DNA of 64,000 nucleotides from Chlorobiota bacterium (GTDB taxonomy: Bacteria > Bacteroidota > Ignavibacteria > OLB7). The position numbers and the translations under genes were made by a program. Below, piece after piece: positions 21,634 to 64,000 of this stretch; the first letter of the stretch is position 1; each line of letters starts with the position of its first letter. The stretch spans positions 2,462,332 through 2,526,331 of the forward strand of contig CAVQEG010000001.1 of assembly GCA_963711465.1 (NCBI GenBank), in the 5' to 3' direction. The notes under the pieces were generated by a model. It was not told the DNA's origin. It saw only the letters and a program-made list of their open reading frames with translations, and ran no database searches.

Positions 21634-21865
21634 CCCGAGAAGTTCCTACCACCCTCAATCGTCAGCAATCGCCGCCGAACCTAACGCTCCACCCCCGGCC
21701 CGGAACCGCAATTTCTGCGATTTTGCACAGATTCAGTCGAAAGGTCCACCCCGGAATCAACCTTTCAGTTGACAGATCTCCACCCAACCGCCCTCTACCT
21801 TTGCACCCGTAGTCAACCCGAAGAATTCCCCAAATGTGTACTTGTCGGCCTTGACGTCACGGGGC

Positions 21866-21873
21866 TATGTTTG
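21866..21873 (+). promoter_or_regulatory. Bacteroidetes-type sigma-A -7 element (TAtgTTTG) upstream of 21926 gene
   Basis: TATGTTTG is a perfect match to the Bacteroidetes TAnnTTTG -7 consensus. It sits about 45 nt upstream of the ATG at 21926. TTG-containing candidates for the -33 element lie 16-27 nt upstream. Confidence 0.45.
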
Positions 21874-21925
21874 CTACCGTCAGAAAGGCCGCTAGGTACA
21901 CTCGAACCAAATCGAGTGCCTCACG

Positions 21926-22465: not shown

Positions 22466-22507
22466 GCAGTCAGTCAGATTGAAAACCCAACAGATTCAGC
22501 CGATTGA

Positions 22508-22546
22508 GACCCCGCTCGCTGCCTTGTCCGGGCAGTGAGCGGGGTC
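22508..22546 (+). terminator. Stem-loop (intrinsic-terminator-like) downstream of 21926..22465
   Basis: gaccccgctcgctgcc-ttgtccg-ggcagtgagcggggtc, a 16-bp stem with one mismatch. No U-tract follows, which is common in this lineage. Confidence 0.5.
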
Positions 22547-22689
22547 AAAGCGGCACACGGATCGCCTCCACGTCCCGGAGGTGAGGGTTCAGACAGACGA
22601 GAGGTCCCGAGCAATGCCGAGAAGGTCCGCAGGTCCGACCTACTGCGCTAACTCCCGAACCGTTCGTTCCGTTTGAGTCACAAGGTGTG

Positions 22690-23960: not shown

Positions 23961-24024
23961 CCGCTTCCCCTATTTTTGTCCTCAGATACGACCCATCTCT
24001 CTCGATACCATCTGAGGTTCTCCT

Positions 24025-47135: not shown

Positions 47136-48797
47136 CTACAGCGCAGCCAGGTGAGCCGCGAGATTCACCTTCGACCCCAGCTCCATCTTCTTTCTGATCC
47201 AGTAGCGGTGGCTTTCGATGTTTCGAATCGAGACCGAGAGCAGGTTGGCGATCTCCTTGTTCGACAGGTTGATCTTCAGCAGTGCGCACACCTTCAGCTC
47301 CGCGGGCGTCAGTTTCGGATAGCGCTGTGAGAGGGTGCGCATGAAATCCTCGTGCACCAGCTGGAACTCCTGTTCGAAGCGCTGCCAGTCATCATCGCCG
47401 CGAAGGTGTTCGTCGATATCGGCGACCACCCGCTTCGGCCCGCCATCACGGGTTGGACGACCATCGGCGGCATCGCGACGAAGCTTCTGCAGGAAGGCAT
47501 TCTTGCGCACCAGATGCATCGCAAGCGAGGTGAGCTCCTTGGAGCGCTGGCGCATCATTTCCTCGAGATGCTCGGTGCGCAGGCGGAAGACCTCCCGTTC
47601 GCGTTCGGCCCGTTCGACATCGAAGCGTGCCTGGGTAATCGCCACCGTCCGTTGTTTCTCCTCACCGATCAGCGCGTCTCTGAGCGACTGGTAGGTCTGC
47701 AGGTGTACGTACGCCTCTTCAAATCGACCGAGCGCGGCGTGGGCATTGGCAAGTCCCAGGCGGACATCGGTGCGGAGCTTCAGCAGACCGAGACGTTCTC
47801 CGAGAGCATCGGCCGCGCGGTAGAGTTCGATCGCCCGCTGGGGTTCCCCCTGCGTCAACATCAGATTTCCGAGTCGCACCTGACCATCGCCGAGCGCCTC
47901 ACCGTTGCCGACCTCTTCTGACAGCTCGATGCCCCTCTGAAGTTCGGCACGGGCACGAGCGAAATCGCCGCGCAGCTCCTGAAGCATTCCGAGCTTCACG
48001 CGGGTGGTGGCTTCGTAGCGTCGCTCACCGATGCGCTGGAAGATCGCGAGCGTCTCCTCGAGCGCGTCGAGCGCGGTATCGTAGTCGCCACGCGCCTTGT
48101 AGATGCCGGAGATGTTCCCCTGCGCGATGGCGATGCTCAGATCGTTCTCAAGCCGTCGGTAGACGAGCAGCGCACGGGAGTGGAATTCAAACGAGGCGTC
48201 GTAGTCCTCGAGGTAGTAGTGGATGTTGCCGATGTTGGACGTGACGATCGCGCCGTTGTGCTCCTGTCCGGTCTCCTCGTAGAGTTTCAACGCCTGCAGG
48301 TAGTAGTCGATCGCCTCGGAGTAGTTGCCGATCGATTCGTGAACGGTGCCGACGTTGTTGAGCGCTGCGGCGGTGCGCACCCTGTCATCGAGTTCGCGAA
48401 AGATTTCCAGTGCCCGGGTGAACGCATCGAGCGACTCGGTGAGCACCGACATGTCGCGGGCGATGATGCCGACGAGATTCAGCAGGTTGGCGGTGTTGAG
48501 CGGATCGTCGAGTTTCTCGAAGATCCGCAGCGATGCGCGGGCGGCCTCCATGGCCTCCGGATACCGGGAGACGGCAACCAACGCCTTCGAGAGCTGCTGC
48601 AGGCAGCGGGCCTGCTGCCGGATCGAGCCCGACCGCTCGGCAAGCGCCCAGGCACGCTCGGCGCGCTCGACGGCCTGAGGCGGATTGCGCTGCCATACCT
48701 CGTCGAACCCCTCCAGGTAGCGCTCGATCCGCTCGCTGTCGTTGGAGGGGTCGGATTCGTCTCGTGCGTCGATATCGTCGGGCCGATCCTGCGACAT
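47136..48797 (-). CDS. TPR-repeat transcriptional regulator with C-terminal LuxR-type HTH
   Basis: There are multiple TPR-like repeats (ALELYRAADALGERLG..., AIDYYLQALKLYEETGQ...). The C-terminus is LTPAELKVCALLKINLSNKEIANLLSVSIRNIESHRYWIRKKMEL. The length is 553 aa. Confidence 0.8.
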   Translation of the reverse strand: MSQDRPDDIDARDESDPSNDSERIERYLEGFDEVWQRNPPQAVERAERAWALAERSGSIRQQARCLQQLSKALVAVSRYPEAMEAARASLRIFEKLDDPLNTANLLNLVGIIARDMSVLTESLDAFTRALEIFRELDDRVRTAAALNNVGTVHESIGNYSEAIDYYLQALKLYEETGQEHNGAIVTSNIGNIHYYLEDYDASFEFHSRALLVYRRLENDLSIAIAQGNISGIYKARGDYDTALDALEETLAIFQRIGERRYEATTRVKLGMLQELRGDFARARAELQRGIELSEEVGNGEALGDGQVRLGNLMLTQGEPQRAIELYRAADALGERLGLLKLRTDVRLGLANAHAALGRFEEAYVHLQTYQSLRDALIGEEKQRTVAITQARFDVERAEREREVFRLRTEHLEEMMRQRSKELTSLAMHLVRKNAFLQKLRRDAADGRPTRDGGPKRVVADIDEHLRGDDDWQRFEQEFQLVHEDFMRTLSQRYPKLTPAELKVCALLKINLSNKEIANLLSVSIRNIESHRYWIRKKMELGSKVNLAAHLAAL

Positions 48798-49126: not shown

Positions 49127-49158
49127 AATTTCGTCTCGATCAAATTTCGTCTCGATCG
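49127..49158 (+). promoter_or_regulatory. Tandem direct repeat (2 x 16 bp, [G/A]AATTTCGTCTCGATC) 30 bp upstream of the HAF-repeat gene
   Basis: gaatttcgtctcgatc / aaatttcgtctcgatc are adjacent copies. They lie in the divergent region between the TPR-LuxR gene (start 48797) and 49188. Confidence 0.5.
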
Positions 49159-49187: not shown

Positions 49188-51080
49188 ATGCGTTCTCTAC
49201 TGCCATCACCGCTCGCCGCCGCGTTCGTGTTCATCACCCTTCTCTGTACGGCTGTCTGTGTCTCCGTGGCGCAGGACATCACGTTCGAGCCGCTCGGAGT
49301 CGGCCCGGGGCCGAACGACCAGAGCACTGCGACGGCCACCAACCGCGACGGGTCGGTCGTCGTCGGCAATCAATTCATCCAGAGCCAGTCCGAATTCGGA
49401 ACCGAGGCGTTTGAGTGGAAAGGCGGCTCGATCACCGGACTCGGCGCGCTCGACGATCCGGATCGGAAGTCGTCGACCGCCTCGGGAGTCTCCGCCGACG
49501 GCACCACGATCGTCGGCAGCTCCAGTTCGGCTGACGGCAATCGCGGCGTTCGCTGGACCAACGGCACACTGGTCGCGTTCGGAACGATTTACTCCGGCGA
49601 CGGCGCGCAGAGCTCCTGCGACGGAATCAGCGACAACGCCGACTGGTTCGTCGGCCAGAGCATCTCGAATATCGAAATCAAAAAAATGGATTCAATCGAG
49701 ATGGAAGTCAGGACCATCGACGCCGTGCTCTGGCACAACGGCTCTCTGACGTCGCTTGGATCGCTCGGAGGGAACGCCAATTACGGCAGTAATGCCACGG
49801 CCACCTGCGTTTCGGACGACGGCTCCGTCGTCGTCGGATCGTCGTCGACGAACGATGGACCGTACACGGGATTCATCTGGAGCGGCGGGTCGATGCAGCC
49901 GCTTCCACCACTTTCCGGTGCCACCGGCAGCTGCGCTGCGAAGGACATGACGCCCGATGGCTCGACGATCGTCGGTTGGTCGAGTCTGCCGGACGACGAT
50001 TCGCACTATACGCTGGTTGCCTGGCGGAATGGTACGGCCGTCGATCTCGGTGTGCCGGGCGGGTTCAACAGCAGTCGTGACGTCCGTGTGTCCGACGACG
50101 GGAACGTCATCGCCGGTGAATACGCCGCCGATCATGGCTCCATGCCGTTCATCTGGACCAGTGCAACCGGTGCCGTGCCGATTCCGACGCTGCTGCAGAG
50201 TCGCGCCACCGATGCCGAAGGGTGGTCGAACCTGACCGTGACCGACATCTCCGGCGACGGTCGCGTCATCGTTGGCCAGGGCACCAATCCCGACGGAAAG
50301 ACCGAGGCGTGGCGCATATCGGTCTCCGTACCCGCGGGCTTCGCCGGCGTCGAAGTTCCAACGGACGGACTGTATGAATTCGGAGGAACCGGTGCCTCGT
50401 TCGCTCTCGCCGGCGTCGGAACGCGCACGCGTCGCGAGCACGACGTCAGGCTCCTGGGCGCCGAGGCCGACACCGTCTACGTGGAGCGTTACGATGCCGC
50501 GCCGACGGCCCACGACGGAATCGCTTCGGATCAGCTTCTTCCGGTCGACTGGGTGGCCAGCGCGACCGACGGCTTCACCTTCACCTCCGCCGAAGCACGT
50601 TTCAACCTCGACTCCGTCGGCATCACCGTCGTCGATCCGGCCGATGTACGCGTCTGGCATCGTGACGTCGCCGGCACCGGCATGTTCGAGCAACTGCAGA
50701 CGAGCGTCGACGACGCCACCGGAGCGATCGTAGCCACTGGAATCACGTCGCTGGGTGAATTCGTGCTCACCGGGTCGATCCCGTCGAAGGTCGCCGCCCG
50801 GAGTCACACCTCCGGGACCGAGCGCCTGAGCGTCACCGGCGCGAATCCCTTTGCCTCAGCCACCACGCTGGAGCTCACGCTTGGCGCCCCGTCGCGAGTG
50901 GTCATCGAGGCACGCGACATCCTCGGTCACCGCGCTGCGCTGCTGCACGACGGACCGATGGCCACAGGCACCCATCGGATCTCCTTCGACGCGGACGGTC
51001 TGCCCTCGGGCGTCTACCTGATCAGTGCCACCGACGGCAAAGGTGTCATCGGCTCCACGACCCTCGCACTTCGGCATTGA
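49188..51080 (+). CDS. HAF-repeat secreted protein with T9SS C-terminal sorting domain
   Basis: Signal peptide MRSLLPSPLAAAFVFITLLCTAVCVSVAQ. The repeated units are GVSADGTTIVGSS, CVSDDGSVVVGSS, DMTPDGSTIVGWS, RVSDDGNVIAGEY and DISGDGRVIVGQG, which fit the HAF extracellular repeat pattern. The CTD is NPFASATTLELTLGAPSRVVIEARDILGHRAALL...GLPSGVYLISATDGKGVIGSTTLALRH. Confidence 0.72.
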   Translation: MRSLLPSPLAAAFVFITLLCTAVCVSVAQDITFEPLGVGPGPNDQSTATATNRDGSVVVGNQFIQSQSEFGTEAFEWKGGSITGLGALDDPDRKSSTASGVSADGTTIVGSSSSADGNRGVRWTNGTLVAFGTIYSGDGAQSSCDGISDNADWFVGQSISNIEIKKMDSIEMEVRTIDAVLWHNGSLTSLGSLGGNANYGSNATATCVSDDGSVVVGSSSTNDGPYTGFIWSGGSMQPLPPLSGATGSCAAKDMTPDGSTIVGWSSLPDDDSHYTLVAWRNGTAVDLGVPGGFNSSRDVRVSDDGNVIAGEYAADHGSMPFIWTSATGAVPIPTLLQSRATDAEGWSNLTVTDISGDGRVIVGQGTNPDGKTEAWRISVSVPAGFAGVEVPTDGLYEFGGTGASFALAGVGTRTRREHDVRLLGAEADTVYVERYDAAPTAHDGIASDQLLPVDWVASATDGFTFTSAEARFNLDSVGITVVDPADVRVWHRDVAGTGMFEQLQTSVDDATGAIVATGITSLGEFVLTGSIPSKVAARSHTSGTERLSVTGANPFASATTLELTLGAPSRVVIEARDILGHRAALLHDGPMATGTHRISFDADGLPSGVYLISATDGKGVIGSTTLALRH

Positions 51081-51517: not shown

Positions 51518-53419
51518 ATGAGAATCGACATGAAAATCTCAACGATAATATGGTGGAATCTCTCGGCGCTCGGTCGTGTGCGACGGGCGATGCTCGACTG
51601 CCTGACGGTTGTCGGTGCGGTCCTGCTCGTGCTCACGACCGTGGCCCACGCGCAGTCGACCCGCATCGACCCGCGCTCGCCGTACGTGCGATCGCTGCCG
51701 GAAGTCGGGCGGATGGAGGGGACGATCACGCACGTTGCCGAAGAGACGCATCCGGAGAGCTTCGGAAACCAGATATACCCCGTTGGTGATGTCAACAATG
51801 ATGGTCTACAGGACTTCATTGTAGCACGGGATCGGGCGGATACGGCGATTCCGGTGCTCACGACGGAATACACGCGAACACCGGAGGAACTGCTGCTGTA
51901 CCTCGGGGTACGGGACGGACTGCCGACGGTGGAGTCCGGGGAACGTATCGGGATCACGGAGATCGCGACAGCGACAACGTTTTTGGCCGCCGGAGATTGG
52001 GATGCTGACGGGAATCGGGACATCGCCTGTCGGGTGGAGATCATCAATGATACCGCGGCGGGAAATCCTGCCGCGCCCAACGGACGACGCATCGCAACCG
52101 TTGTCGTGTTCTGGGGAGACGGGACTGGCGCGTACGGCCTCGGTGACACGACGCGACTGGAGGGCTTCGGAATCCGGTGGCTGGGCGTGGACAATGCTGC
52201 CGCCGGCGATCTCGATGGCGACGGCATCGATGATCTGACGTTCCGCGCGTCGTCTGGGCTCACTGCTGGTCAACTCGTCGCGCAACCGACATTGTTCTTC
52301 TATCGGGGCCATCGGCGCACCCGCTGGGGACGAGCAGGCATACCACGGAGCGGCGACATGTTCTGGTGGACGGCGCCGGACTTCCGCCGAGTGCAACTGG
52401 TCGATCAGGACTGCGACGGCGCCAATGACCTGGCGTTCTACTTCGACAGCCAGAGCGTGAGCAATCCCGGCATGATGTGGGTGCTCTACGGCCGGGCCGG
52501 AGGCGGATTTCCCGATACGAACGACTACCAGTACCTCTCCTTCGACACGGCACATGGCCGCTACGGACTGCTGCGAGATGTCACCGGTGACGGTACCGTC
52601 GACCTGATCTTGACCTCAGGCAACCAGGAGCGCATTCAGATCTTCGCCGGCCGGCCCGGCGAACGTCTGGATGCGGTCTATGGCACCGGCAATGAGGCGC
52701 CACGCCCGGGCGAGACGGAGTGGTGGGGCCGGCCGTGGGCCCAGATCCTGATGCCGCGGAGCATGCACGACGGCTGGGCCTACACATTGGAGAAGATCTT
52801 TGATCTGGGTGACAGCAACCTCGACTCGGTGGCGGACCTGTGGATGGTGGGCGGCCCCTACCTGCTCGGCTACCGCTGCGGCCGACTGATCGACTCGCTG
52901 ATCGACGTGATTGAGACGGTGCCGAGAGCGGACTTCACGGGCATGGCGCGCCTGGGTGACATCGACGGCTCCGGCGTCGAGACGATCGCCATCGGCTACG
53001 ATGACATCCCGCAACGTGGATGGAACCTGTTCCCGGGCGGCATCAAGTTCATCAAGCCGGCAGTGTACCCTCCCGTCGGTGCGTGGCCGCGTCCCGTGCC
53101 GCACGTGCCGGGAGAGCACTGCGGCTCGAGCGTCAGCAGTGTCGAACAACCGCCAGCACTACCCACTGCGGTAGCGTTCACCGTCACCCCGAACCCTGCC
53201 GAGGAGGCAATCGAGGTTTCCTGGAGCGTGGCCGCATCGACCACCGATCTTCGCGTCACGCTGTACAGCATCACGGGAACGGAACTCCACGAGTTCGCGG
53301 AGCGCGGCGCCAGCGGCCGCCAGAGGATCGCGACGACGGACCTGCCGGCGGGCACATACCTCGTCGCGCTGTCATCGGGCACGACGCGCCTCGCCACGCG
53401 TGTCGTGATCGTTCACTAA
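51518..53419 (+). CDS. FG-GAP/VCBS-like repeat surface protein with T9SS C-terminal sorting domain (array copy A, divergent)
   Basis: Signal peptide LDCLTVVGAVLLVLTTVAHAQS. The Asp-rich propeller repeats are GDVNNDGLQD, GDWDADGNRDIACRVE, GDLDGDGIDDLTF, DQDCDGANDLAFYFD and DVTGDGTVDLILTSG. The CTD is VTPNPAEEAIEVSW...LYSITGTELHEF...LPAGTYLVALSSGTTRLATRVVIVH. It is about 60 % identical to copies B-E. Confidence 0.78.
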   Translation: MRIDMKISTIIWWNLSALGRVRRAMLDCLTVVGAVLLVLTTVAHAQSTRIDPRSPYVRSLPEVGRMEGTITHVAEETHPESFGNQIYPVGDVNNDGLQDFIVARDRADTAIPVLTTEYTRTPEELLLYLGVRDGLPTVESGERIGITEIATATTFLAAGDWDADGNRDIACRVEIINDTAAGNPAAPNGRRIATVVVFWGDGTGAYGLGDTTRLEGFGIRWLGVDNAAAGDLDGDGIDDLTFRASSGLTAGQLVAQPTLFFYRGHRRTRWGRAGIPRSGDMFWWTAPDFRRVQLVDQDCDGANDLAFYFDSQSVSNPGMMWVLYGRAGGGFPDTNDYQYLSFDTAHGRYGLLRDVTGDGTVDLILTSGNQERIQIFAGRPGERLDAVYGTGNEAPRPGETEWWGRPWAQILMPRSMHDGWAYTLEKIFDLGDSNLDSVADLWMVGGPYLLGYRCGRLIDSLIDVIETVPRADFTGMARLGDIDGSGVETIAIGYDDIPQRGWNLFPGGIKFIKPAVYPPVGAWPRPVPHVPGEHCGSSVSSVEQPPALPTAVAFTVTPNPAEEAIEVSWSVAASTTDLRVTLYSITGTELHEFAERGASGRQRIATTDLPAGTYLVALSSGTTRLATRVVIVH

Positions 53420-53880
53420 TACCCCCTGGAATTACCACAATCCACAACGCCAATGGCGGGGGAACACCATGCGTCCCATCGTTCGAACTACTCCGAACGA
53501 AAATGAGGGATACTGGCTGCCTCGCGGACGCCACTGACAGTTCTATCTGGCGCTTGGACTGATCACTTCTGGGGTAGGACAACACGATTGGAAAACCTGT
53601 GGAATTTCCGCTTGCCATCGATAAGCGGCAGCTATACCTTCATCGCGCACGAGACGCCCGGCGTATCCCCCACACCACGCGCCGCCGTGCATTGAACGCG
53701 GCGCGGGTCGCATAGGCCGCGGAAGCACCGACCGCCCCACCGGACGGCCGCCGCAATCGAAAGATCGATCACGTCGCACTGCTACCTTGCGAGATGGTAA
53801 TGGCAGAGCAGGTATTGAATTCGTCAGTGTGTGGAGAATGGATGGCGGACCCGATCGCGAGCATGGAGTATAGCCGCTGA

Positions 53881-55815
53881 ATGGTGACAGAAATGAGACA
53901 ATTGACGCTGAAACCTCAGGCCACCTCGCATCCGGCGAGGCGACGGCGCCCACGGCTCGAGCGCATGAGCAGAGTGGTGGCGGGTGTACTGGCGCTGACG
54001 GGACTTGCCGTTGCTGCAACCGACTCGGCGCAGGCGCAGCCAAAGCGGATCGACCCACGCGCGCCCGGCGTGGTGACTGGGCTGCCGGAGTTGGGGCGGA
54101 TGTATGGGCTGGTCAATGGGTCGGGCGCCGAGAACTTCGGCGGGTCCTACATCGGCGGCGGAGATGGCATTACCGCCCTGGGGGATATTTCCGGGGACGG
54201 CATCAATGACTTCGCCGTCTGGCACCGGCGGACCGACACGGCTGGCGCCCCGCAGGAGCTGCTGATCTACCACGGGGTGCGCGGCGGCCTTCCGGCCTCG
54301 ACGAGCGGACAGCGGGTTCGCGTCAGCGAGGCGCCGTCGTACATCACGTTGCTCGGAAGCGGGGATTTCGATGGGGACGGCTACGGCGACCTCGTCACAC
54401 AGGTGGAGATTGAGGGCGATACATCTGCCGGTAACGATTCGATGGGCCGCTCGATCTCGCGCCTGGTCATTTTCTGGAACGACGGGCACGGGTACTACTC
54501 GCTCTCGGACACGACGCGACTGGAGTGCGACGCACAAATGTGGCTGGGGATTTTCGCCGGCCTGGGTCAGGATTTCGACGGGGATGGTGTCGACGACCTG
54601 CTCGTGCGGAACTCCGGCGGATTCTCCAATGGCTATGTCGTGGCGCAGCCTGCGCTGCGGATCTACCGCGGTCACCGAGACGGCCGCTGGGGTCGCGACG
54701 GACTCTCGCGACGTGCGGACTGGCGGAAGTGGAATATTCTCCCGAGCGGACCGGATCTCGATGTGGTCCGGATCCTCGACCAGGACTGCGATGGAAACCC
54801 CGATGTGGTGTTCATCGACGATAGCCACGCCGTCGGCGTTGGTGGGCACGTGGGCGTGCTCTATGGCCGCTCCGGTGCCTTCCCCGATACGACACAACTC
54901 GAGGTTATCGATCTGTCCGCTATCGATGGGCTGACCATGCAGTTTGCCGACGTCACCGGCGATGGGACCTTCGATCTGCTTGCCAACTGCCTCAGATTTC
55001 GGGATGACGGCCGCATGGACGGACGCATTCGTATCTACGCCGGAAGACCCGGGCAGAGACTCATCGAGCAGTTCGGCTCCGGTGACGATGATCCGATCCA
55101 GGGGCACGGGTGGTGGCGGCGTCCGTGGGCGGAGGTGCTCTCGCCCGACCAGCTGCACGAGGACGGCTGGGGAGGCAGCGGCGGAGGGCCGCTCTACGAC
55201 ATGGGCGACGCCAACCTCGACGGCGCCGATGAGATCTGGACGGCGTCGTGGCCACTGATCATCGGGTATTCGGGTGGGCGTGGCATCGACTCGCTGATCG
55301 ATGTGGTGATCCACTTCCCCGGCACCGACATCATGAGCATCGCACGACTGGGAGACATCGACGGGTCGGGGGAACCGACGGTGGCGATCGGGTACAACAA
55401 CTATCCGAATGACAATGGCTTTCCGGGTGCCATCGTGTTTCTGAAGCCGGACCAGTCGGTTCCGACGTGGACGCCGCACCCTCGGCTGCTGCCGCACCTG
55501 CCGGGAGAGTTCTGCGGTGCGACCTCGGCAGCGGTGGAGGTGCCAGCACGCACCTCCGCGAATGCTCTGGCAATCCGGGTGATTCCGAATCCGGCTGCTG
55601 AGACGCTGCGCGTGGAATGGACCGCACCAAATAGCGCAGGCACCGCCAGGATCGAACTGGTTGATGAGAACGGAAACGTGGTTCTGGACCAACCGGTCGG
55701 TGCGACTGCGGGTTTGGCCACGGTCAATACAACGCCCATTGCGGCGGGGACGTACTTCCTTCGGGTCGTGTTCGACGACACCACGACCAGAGCCGTATCC
55801 GTTCGGATTCGGTAG
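53881..55815 (+). CDS. FG-GAP-repeat T9SS-sorted surface protein (array copy B)
   Basis: The 644 aa protein has a signal peptide (RMSRVVAGVLALTGLAVAATDSAQAQ; the alternative start is at MSRVV). The Asp-rich repeats are GDISGDGINDFAV, GDFDGDGYGDLV, DFDGDGVDDLLV, DQDCDGNPDVVFIDD, DVTGDGTFDLLAN and DANLDGADEIWT. The CTD is VIPNPAAETLRVEWTAP...IELVDENGNVVLDQ...AAGTYFLRVVFDDTTTRAVSVRIR. Confidence 0.8.
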   Translation: MVTEMRQLTLKPQATSHPARRRRPRLERMSRVVAGVLALTGLAVAATDSAQAQPKRIDPRAPGVVTGLPELGRMYGLVNGSGAENFGGSYIGGGDGITALGDISGDGINDFAVWHRRTDTAGAPQELLIYHGVRGGLPASTSGQRVRVSEAPSYITLLGSGDFDGDGYGDLVTQVEIEGDTSAGNDSMGRSISRLVIFWNDGHGYYSLSDTTRLECDAQMWLGIFAGLGQDFDGDGVDDLLVRNSGGFSNGYVVAQPALRIYRGHRDGRWGRDGLSRRADWRKWNILPSGPDLDVVRILDQDCDGNPDVVFIDDSHAVGVGGHVGVLYGRSGAFPDTTQLEVIDLSAIDGLTMQFADVTGDGTFDLLANCLRFRDDGRMDGRIRIYAGRPGQRLIEQFGSGDDDPIQGHGWWRRPWAEVLSPDQLHEDGWGGSGGGPLYDMGDANLDGADEIWTASWPLIIGYSGGRGIDSLIDVVIHFPGTDIMSIARLGDIDGSGEPTVAIGYNNYPNDNGFPGAIVFLKPDQSVPTWTPHPRLLPHLPGEFCGATSAAVEVPARTSANALAIRVIPNPAAETLRVEWTAPNSAGTARIELVDENGNVVLDQPVGATAGLATVNTTPIAAGTYFLRVVFDDTTTRAVSVRIR

Positions 55816-55950
55816 AGCGGCGGTGCGTCGTCGCCGGCAATGGCTGCGGCGCATGTGGATCACCGTCGGGCCATGAATACTGAGACAACGCGGCGCAATG
55901 GCGGCCGTAATCGGGCAGGACCGTGTGTCGTAGGTCGTAGAATAATACCG

Positions 55951-56045
55951 TTTGCTATTGGTCAGCGGCGGACGTACGTTTTCGCCGCACGAGACGCCCG
56001 GCGTATCCCCCCACACCACGCGCCGCCGTGCATTGAACGCGGCGG
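55951..56045 (+). promoter_or_regulatory. Conserved leader element upstream of array copy C (same element upstream of copies A, B, D, E)
   Basis: TTTG (55951-54) is followed 20 nt later by TAcgTTTT (55975-82), fitting the Bacteroidetes -33/-7 pattern. The conserved box CGCCGCACGAGACGCCCGGCG lies at 55984-56004. The hairpin ccgccg-tgcattgaacg-cggcgg lies at 56023-56045. Homologous positions are copy A 51326-51376, copy B about 53600-53710, copy D 58291-58385 and copy E about 60620-60715. Confidence 0.5.
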
Positions 56046-56223
56046 GGGGTCGCATACGCCGCGGAAGCACCGACCGCCCAACGCCGACGGCCGCAGCTAT
56101 CGAAACCTTGATCGATTCGCAGTGCTACCTTCGGAGATGGTAATGGCATCGCGGGTAATGTGTTCGTCAGTGTGAGGAGAATGGACGCGTGGCCGGATCG
56201 CGAGCATGGAGTACAGTCATTGA

Positions 56224-58155
56224 ATGGTGACGGAAATGAAACAATTGACGCTGAAACGTCAGGACTCGTCGCAGCTGGCGACCCGACGGCGCCCACGGCT
56301 CCAGCGCATGAGCAGAGTGGTGGCGGGTGTACTGGCGCTGGCGGGACTTGCCGTTGCTGCGTCCGACTCGGCCCACGCGCAGCCAAAGCGGATCGATCCC
56401 CGGGCACCGTGGATGGTGACGGGGCTGCCGGAGTTGGGGCGGATGTACGGGTTTATGACCAATCGCCGTGATCTGGAGGAATTCGGGTGCTCAGAGGTCG
56501 GCGGAGGCATTACGGCACTTGGGGATATTTCCGGGGACGGCATCAATGACTTCGCCGTCTGGCACCGGCGGACCGACACGGCTGGCGCCCCGCAGGAGCT
56601 GCTGATCTACCACGGGGTGCGCGGCGGCCTTCCGGCCTCGACGAGCGGACAGCGGGTTCGCGTCAGCGAGGCGCCGTCGTACATCACGTTGCTCGGAAGC
56701 GGGGATTTCGATGGGGACGGCTACGGCGACCTCGTCACACAGGTGGAGATTGAGGGCGATACATCTGCCGGTAACGATTCGATGGGCCGCTCGATCTCGC
56801 GCCTGGTCATTTTCTGGAACGACGGGCACGGGTACTACTCGCTCTCGGACACGACGCGACTGGAGTGCGACGCACAAATGTGGCTGGGGATTTTCGCCGG
56901 CCTGGGTCAGGATTTCGACGGGGATGGTGTCGACGACCTGCTCGTGCGGAACTCCGGCGGATTCTCCAATGGCTATGTCGTGGCGCAGCCTGCGCTGCGG
57001 ATCTACCGCGGTCACCGAGACGGCCGCTGGGGTCGCGACGGACTCTCGCGACGTGCGGACTGGCGGAAGTGGAATATTCTCCCGAGCGGACCGGATCTCG
57101 ATGTGGTCCGGATCCTCGACCAGGACTGCGATGGAAACCCCGATGTGGTGTTCATCGACGATAGCCACGCCGTCGGCGTTGGTGGGCACGTGGGCGTGCT
57201 CTATGGCCGCTCCGGTGCCTTCCCCGATACGACACAACTCGAGGTTATCGATCTGTCCGCTATCGATGGGCTGACCATGCAGTTTGCCGACGTCACCGGC
57301 GATGGGACCTTCGATCTGCTTGCCAACTGCCTCAGATTTCGGGATGACGGCCGCATGGACGGACGCATTCGTATCTACGCCGGAAGACCCGGGCAGAGAC
57401 TCATCGAGCAGTTCGGCTCCGGTGACGATGATCCGATCCAGGGGCACGGGTGGTGGCGGCGTCCGTGGGCGGAGGTGCTCTCGCCCGACCAGCTGCACGA
57501 GGACGGCTGGGGAGGCAGCGGCGGGGGACCGCTCTACGACATGGGCGACGCCAACCTCGACGGCGCCGATGAGATCTGGACGGCGTCGTGGCCACTGATC
57601 ATCGGGTATTCGGGGGGGCGTGGCATCGACTCGCTGATCGATGTGGTGATCCACTTCCCCGGCACCGACATCATGAGCATCGCACGACTGGGAGACATCG
57701 ACGGGTCGGGGGAACCGACGGTGGCGATCGGGTACAACAACTATCCGAATGACAATGGCTTTCCAGGTGCCATCGTGTTTCTGAAGCCGGACCAGTCGGT
57801 TCCGACGTGGACACCGCACCCTCGGCTGCTGCCGCACCTGCCGGGAGAGTTCTGCGGTGCGACCTCGGCAGCGGTGGAGGTGCCAGCACGTACCTGCGCG
57901 AATGCTCTCGCAATCCGGGTGATTCCGAATCCGGCTGCTGAGACGCTGCGCGTGGAATGGACGGCCCCCGATGACGCACGCGCGGCCAGGATCGAACTGG
58001 TTGATGAGAACGGAAACGTGGTTCTGGACCAACCGGTCGGTGCGACTGCTGGTTCGGCCACGGTCAATACAACGCCCATTGCGGCGGGGACGTACTTCCT
58101 TCGGGTCGTATTCGACGACACCACGACGCAATCCATATCCGTTCGGATTCGGTAG
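56224..58155 (+). CDS. FG-GAP-repeat T9SS-sorted surface protein (array copy C)
   Basis: 643 aa. The N-terminal approximately 100 aa are the alternative version shared with copy E. The central and C-terminal blocks are identical to copy B or D at nucleotide level. Confidence 0.8.
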   Translation: MVTEMKQLTLKRQDSSQLATRRRPRLQRMSRVVAGVLALAGLAVAASDSAHAQPKRIDPRAPWMVTGLPELGRMYGFMTNRRDLEEFGCSEVGGGITALGDISGDGINDFAVWHRRTDTAGAPQELLIYHGVRGGLPASTSGQRVRVSEAPSYITLLGSGDFDGDGYGDLVTQVEIEGDTSAGNDSMGRSISRLVIFWNDGHGYYSLSDTTRLECDAQMWLGIFAGLGQDFDGDGVDDLLVRNSGGFSNGYVVAQPALRIYRGHRDGRWGRDGLSRRADWRKWNILPSGPDLDVVRILDQDCDGNPDVVFIDDSHAVGVGGHVGVLYGRSGAFPDTTQLEVIDLSAIDGLTMQFADVTGDGTFDLLANCLRFRDDGRMDGRIRIYAGRPGQRLIEQFGSGDDDPIQGHGWWRRPWAEVLSPDQLHEDGWGGSGGGPLYDMGDANLDGADEIWTASWPLIIGYSGGRGIDSLIDVVIHFPGTDIMSIARLGDIDGSGEPTVAIGYNNYPNDNGFPGAIVFLKPDQSVPTWTPHPRLLPHLPGEFCGATSAAVEVPARTCANALAIRVIPNPAAETLRVEWTAPDDARAARIELVDENGNVVLDQPVGATAGSATVNTTPIAAGTYFLRVVFDDTTTQSISVRIR

Positions 58156-58563
58156 AGCGGCGGTGCGTCGTCGCCGGCAATGGCTGCGGCGGATGTGGAT
58201 CACCGGCGGGCCATGAATACTGAGACAACACGGCGCAATGGCGGCCGTAATCGGGCAGGACCGTGTGTCGTAGGTCGTAGAATAATACCGTTTGCTATTG
58301 GTCAGCGGCGGACGTACGTTTTCGCCGCACGAGACGCCCGGCGTATCCCCCCACACCACGCGCCGCCGTGCATTGAACGCGGCGGGGGGTCGCATACGCC
58401 GCGGAAGCACCGACCGCCCAACGCCGACGGCCGCAGCTATCGAAACCTTGATCGATTCGCAGTGCTACCTTCGGAGATGGTAATGGCATCGCGGGTAATG
58501 TGTTCGTCAGTGTGTGGAGAATGGACGCGTGGCCGGATCGCGAGCATGGAGTACAGTCATTGA

Positions 58564-60486
58564 ATGGTGACAGAAATGAGACAATTGACGCTGAAACCTC
58601 AGGCCACCTCGCATCCGGCGAGGCGACGGCGCCCACGGCTCGAGCGCATGAGCAGAGTGGTGGCGGGTGTACTGGCGCTGACGGGACTTGCCGTTGCTGC
58701 AACCGACTCGGCGCAGGCGCAGCCAAAGCGGATCGACCCACGCGCGCCCGGCGTGGTGACGGGGCTGCCGGAGTTGGGGCGGATGTATGGGCTGGTCAAT
58801 GGGTCGGGCGCCGAGAACTTCGGCGGGTCCTACATCGGCGGCGGAGATGGCATTACCGCCCTGGGGGATATTTCCGGGGACGGCATCAATGACTTCGCCG
58901 TCTGGCACCGGCGGACCGACACGGCTGGCGCCCCGCAGGAGCTGCTGATCTACCACGGGGTGCGCGGCGGCCTTCCGGCCTCGACGAGCGGACAGCGGGT
59001 TCGCGTCAGCGAGGCGCCGTCGTACATCACGTTGCTCGGAAGCGGGGATTTCGATGGGGACGGATTCGGCGACCTCGTCCTGGCTGTCGAGATCAAGGAC
59101 GACACGACTGCGGGAAACGTACCGGGTGGAAAGCCGGTGGCGCGGTTGGTGATTTTCTGGAACGACGGATACGGCTACTACTCGCTGTCAGATACGACGC
59201 GGTTATCGTGTGAGAGCGAGATGTGGCTGGGGATCCAGAACGGTCTGGGGAAGGATTTTGATGGGGATGGCACTGATGACCTGATGGTCCGCGCCTATGC
59301 GGGGTTCAGCCAGGGTGAAGTCGTGGCGCAGCCGCAGTTGCGGATCTACCGTGGCCATCGCGGTGGCCGGTGGGGTCGCGGGGGGCTCTCGCGGCGAGCG
59401 GACTGGCGAATGTGGAACATTCCACCGACGAAGCAGATCCGCATCCTCGACCAGGACTGCGATGGGAACCCCGATGTGGTGTTCATCGACGATAGCCACG
59501 CCGTCGGTGTTGGGGGGCACGTGGGCGTGCTCTATGGCCGCTCCGGCGCCTTCCCCGATACGACACAACTCGAGGTTATCGATCTGTCCGCTATCGATGG
59601 GCTGACCATGCAGTTTGCCGACGTCACCGGCGATGGGACCTTCGATCTGCTTGCCAACTGCCTCAGATTTCGGGATGACGGCCGCATGGACGGACGCATT
59701 CGTATCTACGCCGGAAGACCCGGGCAGAGACTCATCGAGCAGTTCGGCTCCGGTGACGATGATCCGATCCAGGGGCACGGGTGGTGGCGGCGTCCGTGGG
59801 CGGAGGTGCTCTCGCCCGACCAGCTGCACGAGGACGGCTGGGGAGGCAGCGGCGGGGGACCGCTCTACGACATGGGCGACGCCAACCTCGACGGCGCCGA
59901 TGAGATCTGGACGGCGTCGTGGCCACTGATCATCGGGTATTCGGGGGGGCGTGGCATCGACTCGCTGATCGATGTGGTGATCCACTTCCCCGGCACCGAC
60001 ATCATGAGCATCGCACGACTGGGAGACATCGACGGGTCGGGGGAACCGACGGTGGCGATCGGGTACAACAACTATCCGAATGACAATGGCTTTCCAGGTG
60101 CCATCGTGTTTCTGAAGCCGGACCAGTCGGTTCCGACGTGGACACCGCACCCTCGGCTGCTGCCGCACCTGCCGGGAGAGTTCTGCGGTGCGACCTCGGC
60201 AGCGGTGGAGGTGCCAGCACGTACCTGCGCGAATGCTCTCGCAATCCGGGTGATTCCGAATCCGGCTGCTGAGACGCTGCGCGTGGAATGGACGGCCCCC
60301 GATGACGCACGCGCGGCCAGGATCGAACTGGTTGATGAGAACGGAAACGTGGTTCTGGACCAACCGGTCGGTGCGACTGCTGGTTCGGCCACGGTCAATA
60401 CAACGCCCATTGCGGCGGGGACGTACTTCCTTCGGGTCGTATTCGACGACACCACGACGCAATCCATATCCGTTCGGATTCGGTAG
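58564..60486 (+). CDS. FG-GAP-repeat T9SS-sorted surface protein (array copy D)
   Basis: 640 aa. The N-terminus is identical to copy B. The middle block (FGDLVLAVEIKDDTTAGNVPGGKPVARLV...TKQIRILDQDCDG) is unique. The C-terminal half is identical to copy C. Confidence 0.8.
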   Translation: MVTEMRQLTLKPQATSHPARRRRPRLERMSRVVAGVLALTGLAVAATDSAQAQPKRIDPRAPGVVTGLPELGRMYGLVNGSGAENFGGSYIGGGDGITALGDISGDGINDFAVWHRRTDTAGAPQELLIYHGVRGGLPASTSGQRVRVSEAPSYITLLGSGDFDGDGFGDLVLAVEIKDDTTAGNVPGGKPVARLVIFWNDGYGYYSLSDTTRLSCESEMWLGIQNGLGKDFDGDGTDDLMVRAYAGFSQGEVVAQPQLRIYRGHRGGRWGRGGLSRRADWRMWNIPPTKQIRILDQDCDGNPDVVFIDDSHAVGVGGHVGVLYGRSGAFPDTTQLEVIDLSAIDGLTMQFADVTGDGTFDLLANCLRFRDDGRMDGRIRIYAGRPGQRLIEQFGSGDDDPIQGHGWWRRPWAEVLSPDQLHEDGWGGSGGGPLYDMGDANLDGADEIWTASWPLIIGYSGGRGIDSLIDVVIHFPGTDIMSIARLGDIDGSGEPTVAIGYNNYPNDNGFPGAIVFLKPDQSVPTWTPHPRLLPHLPGEFCGATSAAVEVPARTCANALAIRVIPNPAAETLRVEWTAPDDARAARIELVDENGNVVLDQPVGATAGSATVNTTPIAAGTYFLRVVFDDTTTQSISVRIR

Positions 60487-60892
60487 AGCGGCGGTGCGTC
60501 GTCGCCGGCAATGGCTGCGGCGGATGTGGATCACCGGCGGGCCATGAATACTGAGACAACACGGCGCAATGGCGGGCGTAATCGGGCAGGACCGTGTGTC
60601 GTAGGTCCTAGAATAATACCGTTTGCTATTGGTCAGCGGCGGACGTAGGTTTTCGGCGCACGAGACGCCCGGCGTATCCCCCGCACCACGCGCCGCCGTG
60701 CATTGAACGCGGCGGGAGGGCGCATACGCCGCAGAAGCGCCGACCGCCCCACCGGACGGCCGCAGCTATCGAAACGTTGATCGATTCGCAGTGCTACCTT
60801 CGGAGATGGTAATGGCATCGCGGGTAATGTGTTCGTCAGTGTGTGGAGAATGGACGCGTGGCCGGATCGCGAGCATGGAGTACAGTCATTGA

Positions 60893-62797
60893 ATGGTGAC
60901 AGAAATGAGACAATTGACGCTGAAACCTCAGGCCACCTCGCATCCGGCGAGGCGACGGCGCCCACGGCTCCAGCGCATGAGCAGAGTGGTGGCGGGTGTA
61001 CTGGCGCTGGCGGGACTTGCCGTTGCTGCGTCCGACTCGGCCCACGCGCAGCCAAAGCGGATCGATCCCCGGGCACCGTGGATGGTGACGGGGCTGCCGG
61101 AGTTGGGGCGGATGTACGGGTTTATGACCAATCGCCGTGATCTGGAGGAATTCGGGTGCTCAGAGGTCGGCGGAGGCATTACGGCACTTGGGGATATTTC
61201 CGGGGACGGCATCAATGACTTCGCCGTCTGGCACCGGCGGACCGACACGGCTGGCGCCCCGCAGGAGCTGCTGATCTACCACGGGGTGCGCGGCGGCCTT
61301 CCGGCCTCGACGAGCGGACAGCGGGTTCGCGTCAGCGAGGCGCCGTCGTACATCACGTTGCTCGGAAGCGGGGATTTCGATGGGGACGGCTACGGCGACC
61401 TCGTCACACAGGTGGAGATTGAGGGCGATACATCTGCCGGTAACGATTCGATGGGCCGCTCGATCTCGCGCCTGGTCATTTTCTGGAACGACGGGCACGG
61501 GTACTACTCGCTCTCGGACACGACGCGACTGGAGTGCGACGCACAAATGTGGCTGGGGATTTTCGCCGGCCTGGGTCAGGATTTCGACGGGGATGGTGTC
61601 GACGACCTGCTCGTGCGGAACTCCGGCGGATTCTCCAATGGCTATGTCGTGGCGCAGCCTGCGCTGCGGATCTACCGCGGTCACCGAGACGGCCGCTGGG
61701 GTCGCGACGGACTCTCGCGACGTGCGGACTGGCGGAAGTGGAATATTCTCCCGAGCGGACCGGATCTCGATGTGGTCCGGATCCTCGACCAGGACTGCGA
61801 TGGAAACCCCGATGTGGTGTTCATCGACAACGAGACGAGCTCTCTTGGCAGCGTCGGCGTGCTGTACGGGCGCAAAGGAGCTCTGCCAGACACAACGGAA
61901 CTGGAGGTGGTTGACCTCACGGTAGCAAATGGACACTATGCGCTGTTCAGTGACGTAACGGGCGACGGCAGCTACGATCTGCTGGTCAATTGCGGCGGCG
62001 CGGAACGCATTCGGATCTACGCGGGACGGCCCGCTCAGCGTCTGCTGGAGCAATACGGCAGTGGCTACGAAGGCCCGAGCGATGGACACGGCTGGTGGTC
62101 CCGTCCGTGGGCGGAGGTGCTCTCGCCCGACCAACTGCACGAGGACGGCTGGGGAGGCAGCGGCGGAGCCCCGCTCTACGACATGGGCGACGCCAACCTC
62201 GACGGCGCCGATGAGATCTGGACGGCGTCGTGGCCACTGATCATCGGGTATTCGGGGGGGCGTGGCATCGACTCGCTGATCGATGTGGTGATCCACTTCC
62301 CCGGCACCGACATCATGAGCGTCGCACGACTGGGAGACATCGACGGGTCGGGGGAACCGACGGTGGCGATCGGCTACAACAACTATCCGAATGACAATGG
62401 CTTTCCGGGTGCCATCGTGTTTTTGAAGCCGGACCAGTCGGTTCCGACGTGGACACCGCACCCTCGGCTGCTGCCGCACCTGCCGGGAGAGTTCTGCGGT
62501 GCGACCTCGGCAGCGGTGGAGGTGCCAGCACGTACCTGCGCGAATGCTCTCGCAATCCGGGTGATTCCGAATCCGGCAGCCGAAACGCTCCGGGTGGAAT
62601 GGACCGCGGCTGAGGATGCACGCGCGGCCAGACTCGAACTGGTTGATGAGAACGGGAACGTGGTTCTGGACCAACCGGTCAGTGCGACTGCGGGTTTGGC
62701 CACGGTCGATACAACGCCCATTCCGGCAGGGACGTACTTCCTTCGGATGGTTTTCGACGACACCACGACGCACGCCACAACCGTTCGAATCCGATAG
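60893..62797 (+). CDS. FG-GAP-repeat T9SS-sorted surface protein (array copy E)
   Basis: 634 aa. The N-terminus and middle are identical to copy C. The segment NETSSLGSVGVLYGRKGALPDTTELEVVDLTVANGHYALFSDVTGDGSYDLLVNCGGAERIRIYAGRPAQRLLEQYGSGYEGPSDGHGWWSRPW is unique. The CTD variant ends ...TTTHATTVRIR. Confidence 0.8.
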   Translation: MVTEMRQLTLKPQATSHPARRRRPRLQRMSRVVAGVLALAGLAVAASDSAHAQPKRIDPRAPWMVTGLPELGRMYGFMTNRRDLEEFGCSEVGGGITALGDISGDGINDFAVWHRRTDTAGAPQELLIYHGVRGGLPASTSGQRVRVSEAPSYITLLGSGDFDGDGYGDLVTQVEIEGDTSAGNDSMGRSISRLVIFWNDGHGYYSLSDTTRLECDAQMWLGIFAGLGQDFDGDGVDDLLVRNSGGFSNGYVVAQPALRIYRGHRDGRWGRDGLSRRADWRKWNILPSGPDLDVVRILDQDCDGNPDVVFIDNETSSLGSVGVLYGRKGALPDTTELEVVDLTVANGHYALFSDVTGDGSYDLLVNCGGAERIRIYAGRPAQRLLEQYGSGYEGPSDGHGWWSRPWAEVLSPDQLHEDGWGGSGGAPLYDMGDANLDGADEIWTASWPLIIGYSGGRGIDSLIDVVIHFPGTDIMSVARLGDIDGSGEPTVAIGYNNYPNDNGFPGAIVFLKPDQSVPTWTPHPRLLPHLPGEFCGATSAAVEVPARTCANALAIRVIPNPAAETLRVEWTAAEDARAARLELVDENGNVVLDQPVSATAGLATVDTTPIPAGTYFLRMVFDDTTTHATTVRIR

Positions 62798-62902: not shown

Positions 62903-64000
62903 ATGGTCACGTCACTCCGACTTCTCCTGCTCGCCTGCCTGGCGAGCACGGTGCTGCTCGTACCCTCTGCGCACGCGCAATCGACGGGCGACTACCACGG
63001 GTACACCTACGACAGCACGTTCTTCATCGGCGGTATGACCGTCAACCGCACGGCACTGCTGCCGGTGGTGCACGACTCGCTGCACATGTCGGTGATCCAC
63101 TTCTACGGGATTCCGTCATACAGCGATTCGGCGCACGCCTTTCAGCACCTGGCGACGGGCGATTCGGGCGTCTACAATCTGAAGCAGCTGATTCCGGTGC
63201 TGTCGAGTCTGGGAATGGGAATTTCCGCACCGACGGGCCGGACGGACGGACTCATTCGAGCCTCGCACGTGCGCGAGAGCTACCTCGATCGGGATACCGT
63301 CTACGCCCACTGGAGTTGGAATTCTCCGGTCGATACGACGTTGACCACGCGTGATACCAATGCAGTACTGCACGACAAGCTGTTCGCATGGGGCCGCACC
63401 CTACCGCGCGATCCGACAGGCAACGACACCGCGCACCTCGTCGCAGCGAATCCCAACTACTTCAATGACGCCCTCGTTCCCGACGGCCCCTCGTACTACG
63501 CCATGCTCGACAGCATCAGCGGTCCGTCCGGCTATGCGGATAGCTCGCACTACTTCCGGCTCTCATTCGCGGTGAAGATCGATGAGACGAGCACATACTT
63601 CCGCGATTCCGTGGGCGACGCTGACACACTTGCCTACGCCATTCTCTACCGTCGGGACACGACCGGTCAGTCGGACACCTCCTGCTGGTGTAACATCTGG
63701 GTTCCGTGGCGCGTGGTCGGGCTGACGAAGCGCGACTACCTCGACTCCAGGCACGCCGGCGATGGTTACCGTGCGTTCGGCACGACGTTCACCGATACGG
63801 AGTACGGGGGGCTTCCGGCCGCGTGGTTTCAATGGCCGAACAACCGTTCCGATACGGTGTTTGTCGACACCACTCACCCCACGGTCGGGCAGTACTGTGA
63901 CTCGATCGCCGGGACGCTCCCAGGCGCGTACAACATGGGGACGATCCCTGCTCCCGAAAACACGAATCTCACCTACCGCCTGTTCTCCACCCGACGCGTC
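62903..64000 (+). CDS. Secreted hypothetical protein, 5' part (runs off the end of the window)
   Basis: ATG 62903 is preceded by GGAGGA. The signal peptide is MVTSLRLLLLACLASTVLLVPSAHAQ. The frame is open through 64000 (366 codons, no stop). Confidence 0.65.
   Translation, partial: MVTSLRLLLLACLASTVLLVPSAHAQSTGDYHGYTYDSTFFIGGMTVNRTALLPVVHDSLHMSVIHFYGIPSYSDSAHAFQHLATGDSGVYNLKQLIPVLSSLGMGISAPTGRTDGLIRASHVRESYLDRDTVYAHWSWNSPVDTTLTTRDTNAVLHDKLFAWGRTLPRDPTGNDTAHLVAANPNYFNDALVPDGPSYYAMLDSISGPSGYADSSHYFRLSFAVKIDETSTYFRDSVGDADTLAYAILYRRDTTGQSDTSCWCNIWVPWRVVGLTKRDYLDSRHAGDGYRAFGTTFTDTEYGGLPAAWFQWPNNRSDTVFVDTTHPTVGQYCDSIAGTLPGAYNMGTIPAPENTNLTYRLFSTRRV

Follow-up and report, generated by a model that had tools for sequence, protein, structure and literature searches.

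A block mosaic in a tandem array of FG-GAP propeller genes from a Chlorobiota bacterium

A 64,000-nucleotide (nt) stretch of a Chlorobiota bacterium genome (GenBank assembly GCA_963711465.1, contig CAVQEG010000001.1, positions 2,462,332 to 2,526,331), hereafter the window, carries at positions 51518-62797 a tandem array of five genes, A to E, whose products combine a signal peptide, a predicted FG-GAP beta-propeller and a C-terminal sorting domain of the type IX secretion system (T9SS). The last four genes, B to E, are mosaics in which long tracts identical down to their synonymous sites adjoin islands of old divergence, and these islands occur as discrete alternative versions that are combined differently from one gene to the next. 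The mosaic is most probably the product of homologous recombination, comprising gene conversion and unequal crossover, among full-length paralogs. A preliminary description of the window had proposed that the tandem paralogs undergo recurrent gene conversion or cassette shuffling, and this proposal is borne out by zero-substitution tracts that adjoin islands with a synonymous divergence (dS) of 0.7-2.0, together with mutually incompatible site patterns.

The listing of open reading frames (ORFs) agrees with five consecutive plus-strand genes of 633-644 amino acids (aa), as previously described: gene A at 51518-53419 (633 aa), gene B at 53881-55815 (644 aa), gene C at 56224-58155 (643 aa), gene D at 58564-60486 (640 aa) and gene E at 60893-62797 (634 aa). 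From A to E, the starts lie 2363, 2343, 2340 and 2329 nt apart and the ends 2396, 2340, 2331 and 2311 nt apart, with the last three start spacings matching the 2.33-2.34 kb period earlier given for B to E. The spacers between B and C (55816-56223, 408 nt), between C and D (58156-58563, 408 nt) and between D and E (60487-60892, 406 nt), listed on the same strand, are of nearly constant length, and the B-C spacer belongs to the 2.34-kb repeat unit. The five ORFs are all intact, free of frameshifts and Ns, and their G+C content at third codon positions (~0.76) indicates that these frames are the true coding frames; the long ORFs on the opposite strand of the array are artefacts of high GC. B to E are collinear, at 634-644 aa. 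Judging from its signal peptide, the probable true start of gene B is at 53965 (MSRVV...), and public gene calls begin B and E at this motif (53965 and 60977), with C and D called further upstream. The 616-aa public protein P0001 is 100% identical to gene B from 53965, gene A corresponds to P0005 and gene C to P0059 as identical proteins, gene D from 58576 is identical to P0060, and gene E from 60977 is identical to P0058. Gene A shares ~41-44% aa identity with B to E; it is an old paralog heading the array and stands outside the mosaic of the window, so that the earlier notion of a five-gene mosaic holds for B to E and fails for A.

The block structure was mapped by aligning the four repeat units (spacer plus gene, B to E) with MAFFT and reducing the alignment to runs of site patterns. 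Each unit opens with a distal spacer that is common to C, D and E and unrelated in B. At the 5' end of the long ORFs is a segment of ~60 nt where only C departs from the other copies, at 10 sites; its ratio of nonsynonymous to synonymous divergence (dN/dS) is 1.2, and it is probably 5' untranslated region. The N-block island is present as version 1 in B (53959-54180) and D (58642-58863) and as version 2 in C (56302-56520) and E (60971-61189), on the plus strand like all other blocks; it spans the signal peptide and the first strands, ends just before the first DxDxDG loop and is defined by 50 sites of the abab pattern, which groups B with D and C with E. Over the whole island the two versions share 77% nt identity, a figure that drops to 54% in the core, and no exact match there is longer than 8 nt. 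It is followed by a 200-nt block which string comparison shows to be identical in B to E (54181-54380, 56521-56720, 58864-59063 and 61190-61389). The mid island, extending from the second to the fourth DxDxDG loop and corresponding approximately to blades 3-4, takes a second version in D only (59064-59547, 131 D-only sites), with 69% nt identity between versions in the core and a longest exact match of 23 nt. The post island follows loop 4, approximately at blades 5-6, and takes a second version in E only (61829-62134, ~125 E-only sites, 62% nt identity); the longest exact match in its core is 9 nt, one 32-nt match excepted. The copy-specific peptides of the second versions include ...EIKDDTTAGNVPGGKPVAR... 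in mid2 and ...NETSSLGSVGVLYGRK... in post2. On the 3' side of the post island lie a near-identical stretch and then the tail, which codes for the sorting domain and is exactly the same in C and D, with B and E each differing by 5-10%. Three of the block borders coincide with DNA coding for conserved DxDxDG calcium loops.

The genes can accordingly be written as N1-mid1-post1-tail b for B, N2-mid1-post1-tail c for C, N1-mid2-post1-tail c for D and N2-mid1-post2-tail e for E, the last with a 5' leader of type 1. The preliminary description had assigned N-terminal version 1 to B and D and version 2 to C and E, a middle alternative to D, an alternative after the VVFID motif to E and three variants to the C-terminal tail, and the alignment returns the same assignments with small refinements. 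Within the sorting domain, a hypervariable patch has also been observed at 55623-55644 (equivalents at 57963-57984, 60294-60315 and 62605-62626), which reads TAPNSAGTARIE in B, TAPDDARAARIE in C and D and TAAEDARAARLE in E; in contrast to the cleanly separated blocks of the rest of the unit, three site patterns are intermixed here within ~20 nt.

The tracts shared between the genes are long and exact. String comparison gives 1004 nt between B and C (54181-55184 = 56521-57524), 1028 nt between C and D (57217-58244 = 59548-60575), a tract that continues past the stop codon into the spacer, 876 nt between C and E (56284-57159 = 60953-61828), which lie two repeat units apart, and 639 nt between B and E (54181-54819 = 61190-61828), all on the plus strand. 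These tracts adjoin islands that are 62-77% identical, which agrees with the sharp borders between identical and divergent sequence expected from the preliminary description. Its argument from identical out-of-frame ORFs stands in most of its parts, with two of the three sets being exact; in the third, 57534-57740 and 59865-60071 are identical in C and D, and 55194-55400 in B differs from them at one base (55275).

The mosaic departs strongly from a random arrangement of differences. Along the 369 variable columns of the coding sequences there are 38 switches of site pattern, compared with 252.6±8.2 (minimum 222) in 10,000 column permutations, and the longest identical run exceeds that of all 2000 simulations with the same number of differences for each of the six pairs of B to E. 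Parsimony-informative sites conflict with one another, with 50 supporting (B,D)(C,E), the abab pattern, and 6 supporting (B,E)(C,D), the abba pattern.

Nei-Gojobori estimates have revealed that the islands are old. In the mature part of the N block dS is 0.70 (dN/dS 0.33), in the mid island 1.17 (dN/dS 0.20) and in the post island 1.97 (dN/dS 0.17), while the exact shared tracts have zero substitutions, synonymous sites included (dS 0). The differences between block versions fall mostly at third codon positions, and the substitution spectrum covers all twelve classes. Taken together, the dS and dN/dS values and the third-position differences indicate that the islands are old functional alleles under purifying selection, and, there being no adenine bias, neither recent hypermutation nor a retroelement produced them. 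Stronger protein constraint as the cause of identity in the shared blocks was considered and rejected, given that the synonymous sites are also identical and that, in entropy computed per block across 37 distant family members, the identical blocks (2.03 bits at residues 387-530, 2.49 in the tail) are no lower than the islands (1.87-2.05 bits; mid 2.01, post 1.87), with the exception of the more conserved first shared block (residues 69-139, 1.57 bits). With this much variability across the family, the identity of the shared blocks among B to E reflects recent copying rather than constraint.

Genes A to E lie on a single contig of 3,201,621 bp together with four more paralogs outside the window (P0006, P0003, P0061 and P0057), which presumably form a second array headed by an A-like gene. 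Block sharing with the copies outside the window was assessed by protein-level comparison. P0006 is 90% identical to gene A overall, the two proteins being the same over residues 1-183 and 381-633; their divergence is confined to residues 184-380, a segment that overlaps the mid and post islands of B to E. P0003 is ~70% identical to B to E, with 99% identity to all copies in the first shared block and 56-76% elsewhere, and it carries a 91% version of the post island of E; this patchy identity implies that P0003 has also exchanged a patch. P0057 is truncated, at 357 aa. An in-frame glycine deletion in P0057 (GGSGGPLYD, against GGSGGGPLYD or GGSGGAPLYD in B to E) and a fourth variant of the tail have been noted as well. 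A further family member, P0002, is found on a 356,103-bp contig of another assembly. The block versions are discrete at this level, being either 100% identical or clearly different, and versions at 100% identity are shared with P0061, P0057 and P0003 of the same contig and with P0002, with mid2 and post2 both finding such a match in P0061 and P0002. With the N, mid and post versions written in order, B is 111, C 211, D 121, E 212, P0061 222 and P0002 122, which amounts to six of the eight possible combinations. Among the paralogs of the one genome, P0061 included, all four N/mid pairings and all four mid/post pairings occur.

Related loci of other Kapabacteria-like genomes were also compared. 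Three tandem copies are present in locus L003, where the longest exact run is 74 nt; locus L005 has two copies, with a 653-nt exact run beside a region of 72-80% identity; and in locus L006 three or more copies lie at the end of a contig, their identity changing from 100% to 57% to 97% along the profile, with an exact run of 132 nt. The exact runs in these three loci each lie beyond all 5000 simulations, and a fourth locus, L004, holds a single copy. Patchy tandem copies can thus be seen, in the public sequences, to recur in independent assemblies of other Kapabacteria-like genomes. In L005 (GCA_019695125.1, a Kapabacteria metagenome-assembled genome, MAG), an insertion sequence (HTH_Tnp_4 and DDE_Tnp_1 domains) has been observed between family copies at 11740-12566. 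A scan of genome contigs for the array itself matched only a distant Candidatus (Ca.) Kapaibacterium MAG; in metagenome contigs, a profile scan returned only generic FG-GAP proteins at 22-31% identity, and an exact 51-mer from the shared block found no match.

The five proteins share a common architecture, as previously described from the window. An N-terminal Sec signal peptide can be read directly from the sequence (MSRVVAGVLALTGLAVAATDSAQA|Q), and the domain models score above curated cut-offs: FG-GAP_3 (PF13517) at 28.9-39.9 bits in A to E (cut-off 26.9), FG-GAP (PF01839) at 26.8-29.7 bits in A to D (cut-off 22.1, with E slightly below it at 21.3), Por_Secre_tail (PF18962) at 27.1-33.6 bits in all five (cut-off 27) and the type A sorting domain TIGR04183 at 24.8-29.2 bits in A, B, D and E, the copies compared with NCBIfam (cut-off 23). 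The sorting-domain matches end no more than ~10 residues from the C terminus. An AlphaFold2 model of gene B, built with 46 homologs, has a predicted local distance difference test score of 83.6 and a predicted template modelling score of 0.78; it places an N-terminal helix at residues 2-22, followed by the propeller, a disordered linker and a beta-sandwich sorting domain. Foldseek comparison of this model with the PDB gives integrin alpha chains as the top matches (E 4e-11, probability 1.0). A strict motif scan of P0001 detects five DxDxDG-type loops (residues 134, 203, 272, 415 and 464), and two more calcium loops (near residues 73 and 328) can be read by eye, for a total of seven. On this evidence, A to E consist of a Sec signal peptide, a seven-bladed FG-GAP propeller of the integrin alpha type and a type A T9SS sorting domain. 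As in integrin alpha chains, the predicted propeller has seven blades with DxDxDG calcium loops, although sequence identity is only 11-14%; unlike those chains, the proteins are bacterial and secreted, carry a T9SS sorting domain and have neither thigh nor calf domains nor a known ligand. The products should be exported by the T9SS to the cell surface or the medium, as their domains predict, and no core T9SS gene was identified within the 64-kb window. The 22 residues invariant across 46 aligned family members are kept in all copies, and these look functional, being intact with the invariant residues preserved.

A mechanism may be proposed from these observations. B to E and at least three or four paralogs elsewhere on the chromosome would exchange DNA by ordinary homologous recombination, both inside the array and from one locus to the other. 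The family would derive from two or three old lineages, with 55-74% protein identity across the islands, and recent exchange would have homogenised the upstream leader and the greater part of the gene. Non-reciprocal gene conversion would copy patches between paralogs, while unequal crossover of misaligned 2.3-kb units would generate hybrid genes and change copy number. The three diverged islands would move as whole blocks, with exchange starting and ending in the identical flanks, and the outcome would be intact propellers with different combinations of blade versions. In Escherichia coli, recombination of the RecA type needs roughly 25-30 nt of identity, and the exact matches in the island cores (8, 23 and 9 nt, the one 32-nt match excepted) lie at or below this length. 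The islands would behave as cassettes because there are almost no exact matches inside them long enough for an exchange to start or end, and from this we infer both the RecA-type mechanism and the limitation of exchange to the flanks.

A number of points weigh against this interpretation. The main risk lies in the assembly, from which the copy number and order of the array are taken. The sharing of blocks with copies outside the window is known from protein sequence only, the copies of the window by themselves show three of the four combinations for each pair of blocks, so that the four-gamete argument on the large blocks needs P0061, and P0002 may be a collapsed chimera of a short-read assembly. 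In addition, the substitutions between block versions are not enriched in loops relative to strands of the model (Fisher p 0.16-0.54), and therefore no binding surface is marked among the islands. Concerted evolution that left the old divergence standing would give the same pattern. The data are equally compatible with selection that keeps the combinations and with homogenisation that is incomplete, stalled by divergence. The adaptive diversifying role that the preliminary description had suggested, as in surface antigens or adhesins, is at present an unproven analogy, and the islands are under purifying selection.

Recombination among full-length paralogs has been weighed against three other explanations. 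It is quite unlikely that the array is an assembly artefact, arising from strain variants of a shorter array in a mixed population being strung in tandem or from repeats joined wrongly, in which case no single cell would have this copy number or these block combinations. In its favour, assemblers have difficulty placing exact repeats of ~1 kb, the apparent source is an uncultured lineage whose homologs are named as Kapabacteria, Chlorobi or Bacteroidetes MAGs, P0057 is truncated, and related short-read MAG contigs often end in family genes (L001, L002 and L006). However, the array lies within a single 3.2-Mb contig, which probably implies long reads, and reads of a few kb would span the repeats of 1004-1028 nt; the ORFs show no damage, the junctions between A and B and between E and the downstream sequence are unique, and independent assemblies contain tandem copies with the same patchiness. 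Even with a wrong copy number, discrete shared and alternative blocks need recombination among alleles or paralogs. Import of blocks from other strains, by transformation or other horizontal transfer followed by homologous replacement, is very unlikely as the main source of the mosaic. Such a route has been described for surface proteins of Porphyromonas gingivalis (PMC5266723), and P0002, from the other assembly, has the combination N1-mid2-post2, which was not found on the 3.2-Mb contig. The identical tracts, however, run through the spacers with the period of the array, and counterparts at 100% protein identity exist within the genome for mid2 (D and P0061), post2 (E and P0061) and N2 (C, E and P0061); as every alternative version of the window has such a counterpart, internal donors are the more economical explanation.

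A programmed system, that is, dedicated high-frequency shuffling of blade cassettes that varies a surface receptor or antigen by means of silent cassettes, a recombinase or shufflon, or a diversity-generating retroelement, is highly improbable. It would suit products that are T9SS surface or secreted proteins, the six of eight combinations and the sharp, recurrent borders at conserved motifs, and a genome with two loci has possible donor pools. A silent-cassette and expression-site arrangement was nonetheless rejected, as all copies in the array are full length, each with a conserved leader and a signal peptide, and a search of the spacers and the rest of the window gave no family fragments, silent cassettes or truncated, promoterless copies (blastx of the spacers against family proteins, E > 0.2). 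A diversity-generating retroelement was rejected on the breadth of the substitution spectrum, which is not adenine-specific, and because no reverse transcriptase was seen among the ORFs scanned; among about 32 of the largest ORFs of the window, scanned against Pfam, there was neither a reverse transcriptase nor a recombinase. Shufflons and invertible segments were likewise set aside, as all copies are direct repeats and the inverted repeats detected in 48-64 kb amount to just four weak pairs (21-28 nt, 75-81%), none of which flanks a block. The neighbouring genes are housekeeping genes, and the islands, with dN/dS of 0.17-0.33, are old alleles and not fresh diversity. With silent cassettes, a reverse transcriptase, an invertase and notable inverted repeats all looked for without success, there is no indication of a programmed system.

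Mosaic recombination in tandem or paralogous surface-protein genes is already well known. In Flavobacterium psychrophilum, up to 19 tandem genes for putative leucine-rich repeat (LRR) surface proteins have been reported (Duchaud, 2007; Altae-Tran et al., 2020; PMC10392669), with conserved intergenic units, no mobile-element genes and extensive signatures of recombination at the nucleotide level; the number of internal repeats varies, and the spacers consist of gene fragments joined at microhomologies of 1-5 bp, a sign of illegitimate recombination (PMC10392669). B to E share with this array tandem genes for putative surface proteins, conserved intergenic units, a lack of mobile-element genes, nucleotide-level signs of recombination and a location on a Bacteroidota chromosome, and differ from it in having full-length collinear copies, spacers free of gene fragments, a proposed homologous exchange between long identical flanks and a seven-bladed propeller in place of an LRR solenoid. 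A locus of this illegitimate-recombination type was rejected for the array on the basis of spacers lacking family similarity, at the blastx values given above, and gene lengths of 634-644 aa. The P. gingivalis surface virulence factors Kgp, RgpA and HagA are T9SS cargo. Like B to E, these paralogs share domain blocks in discrete alternative versions, which in P. gingivalis recombine into many combinations that do not follow strain phylogeny; gene conversion has been invoked for this, and natural competence plays a part (Dashper et al., 2017; PMC5266723). Their genes are dispersed and not arranged in a tandem array as B to E are, their variation is documented between strains, and their domains are cleaved adhesin modules instead of propeller blades.

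Replacement of surface-gene segments by paralogous sequence is also a property of Neisseria pilE/pilS, Borrelia vlsE, Anaplasma msp2 and Treponema tprK. Systems of the pilE/pilS type have one expression site, truncated promoterless donors and unidirectional transfer, often with dedicated cis elements, whereas the donors in B to E are complete genes and the window was found to contain neither truncated cassettes nor notable inverted repeats. In concerted evolution, duplicated genes such as bacterial tufA and tufB are kept identical by conversion. Long tracts stay identical in this process while diverged islands persist, as treated in a preprint on mosaic divergence in tandem paralogues (bioRxiv 10.1101/2025.10.29.685298). 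B to E resemble concerted evolution and interlocus conversion in their long identical tracts and diverged islands, which give a mosaic identity profile, and are set apart from the general case by belonging to a nine-member family of secreted propellers, at two loci, with a near-complete combinatorial set of blocks. The mechanism being well known, the array is a clear but familiar footprint of gene conversion.

The locus nonetheless provides a quantifiable case in which gene conversion and unequal crossover would shape a secreted protein family in uncultured Kapabacteria-like Bacteroidota, and in which the mere need of exchange for identical flanks would be enough to preserve old divergence in the form of discrete cassettes. 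As genes of this family break short-read assemblies and can collapse to chimeras, care is needed with copy number, orthology and dN/dS in MAGs. Variation of the combinations within populations would make the locus a candidate system of surface variation for T9SS cargo outside pathogens; the surface localisation of the products is predicted, and any benefit of the combinations hypothetical. A more far-reaching reading, in which the two arrays form a standing repertoire of blade cassettes and exchange at the calcium-loop DNA brings the versions of blade 1, of blades 3-4 and of blades 5-6 into new combinations within ecological time, must be regarded as unlikely. Were it true, cells of one population would differ in the propeller combination that a T9SS surface protein displays, for instance in escape from phage using the propeller as receptor or in matching variable ligands, and the repeat architecture of the propeller would itself be the recombination scaffold. 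To our knowledge, calcium-loop-anchored reassortment of blades has not been described for beta-propellers or for Kapabacteria.

Upstream of the genes, the leaders take part in the repeat. The proximal leader of B (53646-53880, plus strand, ~230 nt) is conserved with those of C, D and E, at 86% over 231 nt by blastn, and the leaders of C, D and E are 95-99.6% identical among themselves. The distal spacer 5' of the B leader (53420-53645) is unrelated to the other spacers, and the proximal 244 nt of the B-C spacer are 99.6% identical to the C-D spacer and 95% identical to the D-E spacer. The leaders of B to E have no Rfam match at E <= 1 and are not conserved upstream of A or in the other loci; in the spacers, scans for sigma-70 promoters and for terminators gave nothing above shuffled expectation, and the Bacteroidota-type TAnnTTTG motif is absent from all of them. 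A GC-rich hairpin (CCCCCC...GCGCCGCCGTGCATTGAACGCGGCGGGGGG) has been observed in the leaders at ~56005-56050, 58345-58390 and 60676-60720, and in weaker form at ~53670-53712. It is not followed by a T-run, the lengths of its C and G runs vary slightly between copies, and it likewise lacks an Rfam match and is not conserved upstream of A or in the other loci.

Downstream of the array lies a plus-strand gene at 62903-64000, cut by the window end, which is not part of the repeat. Its product is homologous to those of genes that follow family members in L003 (11879-14506, 875 aa, E 2e-9) and L004 (11909-17269, 1786 aa, E 8e-9), the latter with a T9SS C-terminal domain (CTD). No Pfam or NCBIfam domain was detected in the window fragment, nor in the L003 and L004 proteins besides the CTD of L004. 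This recurrent position suggests that the gene is a conserved synteny partner, possibly a functional pairing with a large T9SS protein.

The surrounding genes are of housekeeping type, including RecJ, RecQ, a Mur ligase, Kup, PanB and others. Closer to the array, several further genes bear a CTD, with a CTD-like match at 42978-43241 and a CTD-bearing gene at 49188-51080. This latter gene (plus strand) codes for a HAF-repeat protein with a weak T9SS sorting domain, and is divergent from a minus-strand gene at 47136-48797 for a regulator with tetratricopeptide repeats and a LuxR/GerE domain, the pair being located immediately upstream of A. A cluster of secreted-protein genes with a local regulator upstream of A is therefore possible. 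A perfect 16-nt tandem repeat (AATTTCGTCTCGATCA, 1.9 copies) is present at 49127-49157, ~30 nt upstream of the start of the HAF-repeat gene. Further away, the stretch at ~18000-24000 has a lower G+C content (0.55-0.60, compared with ~0.63-0.65 elsewhere) and may be foreign or mobile DNA; two adjacent paralogs found there, at 18941-20287 and 20383-21633, have transposase-like HTH_23/HTH_28 N-termini and C-termini of the sigma-70 region 4/GerE type. Among the housekeeping genes, two tandem members of the squalene/phytoene synthase family (hpnC/hpnD-like) are located at 6736-8784 on the plus strand.

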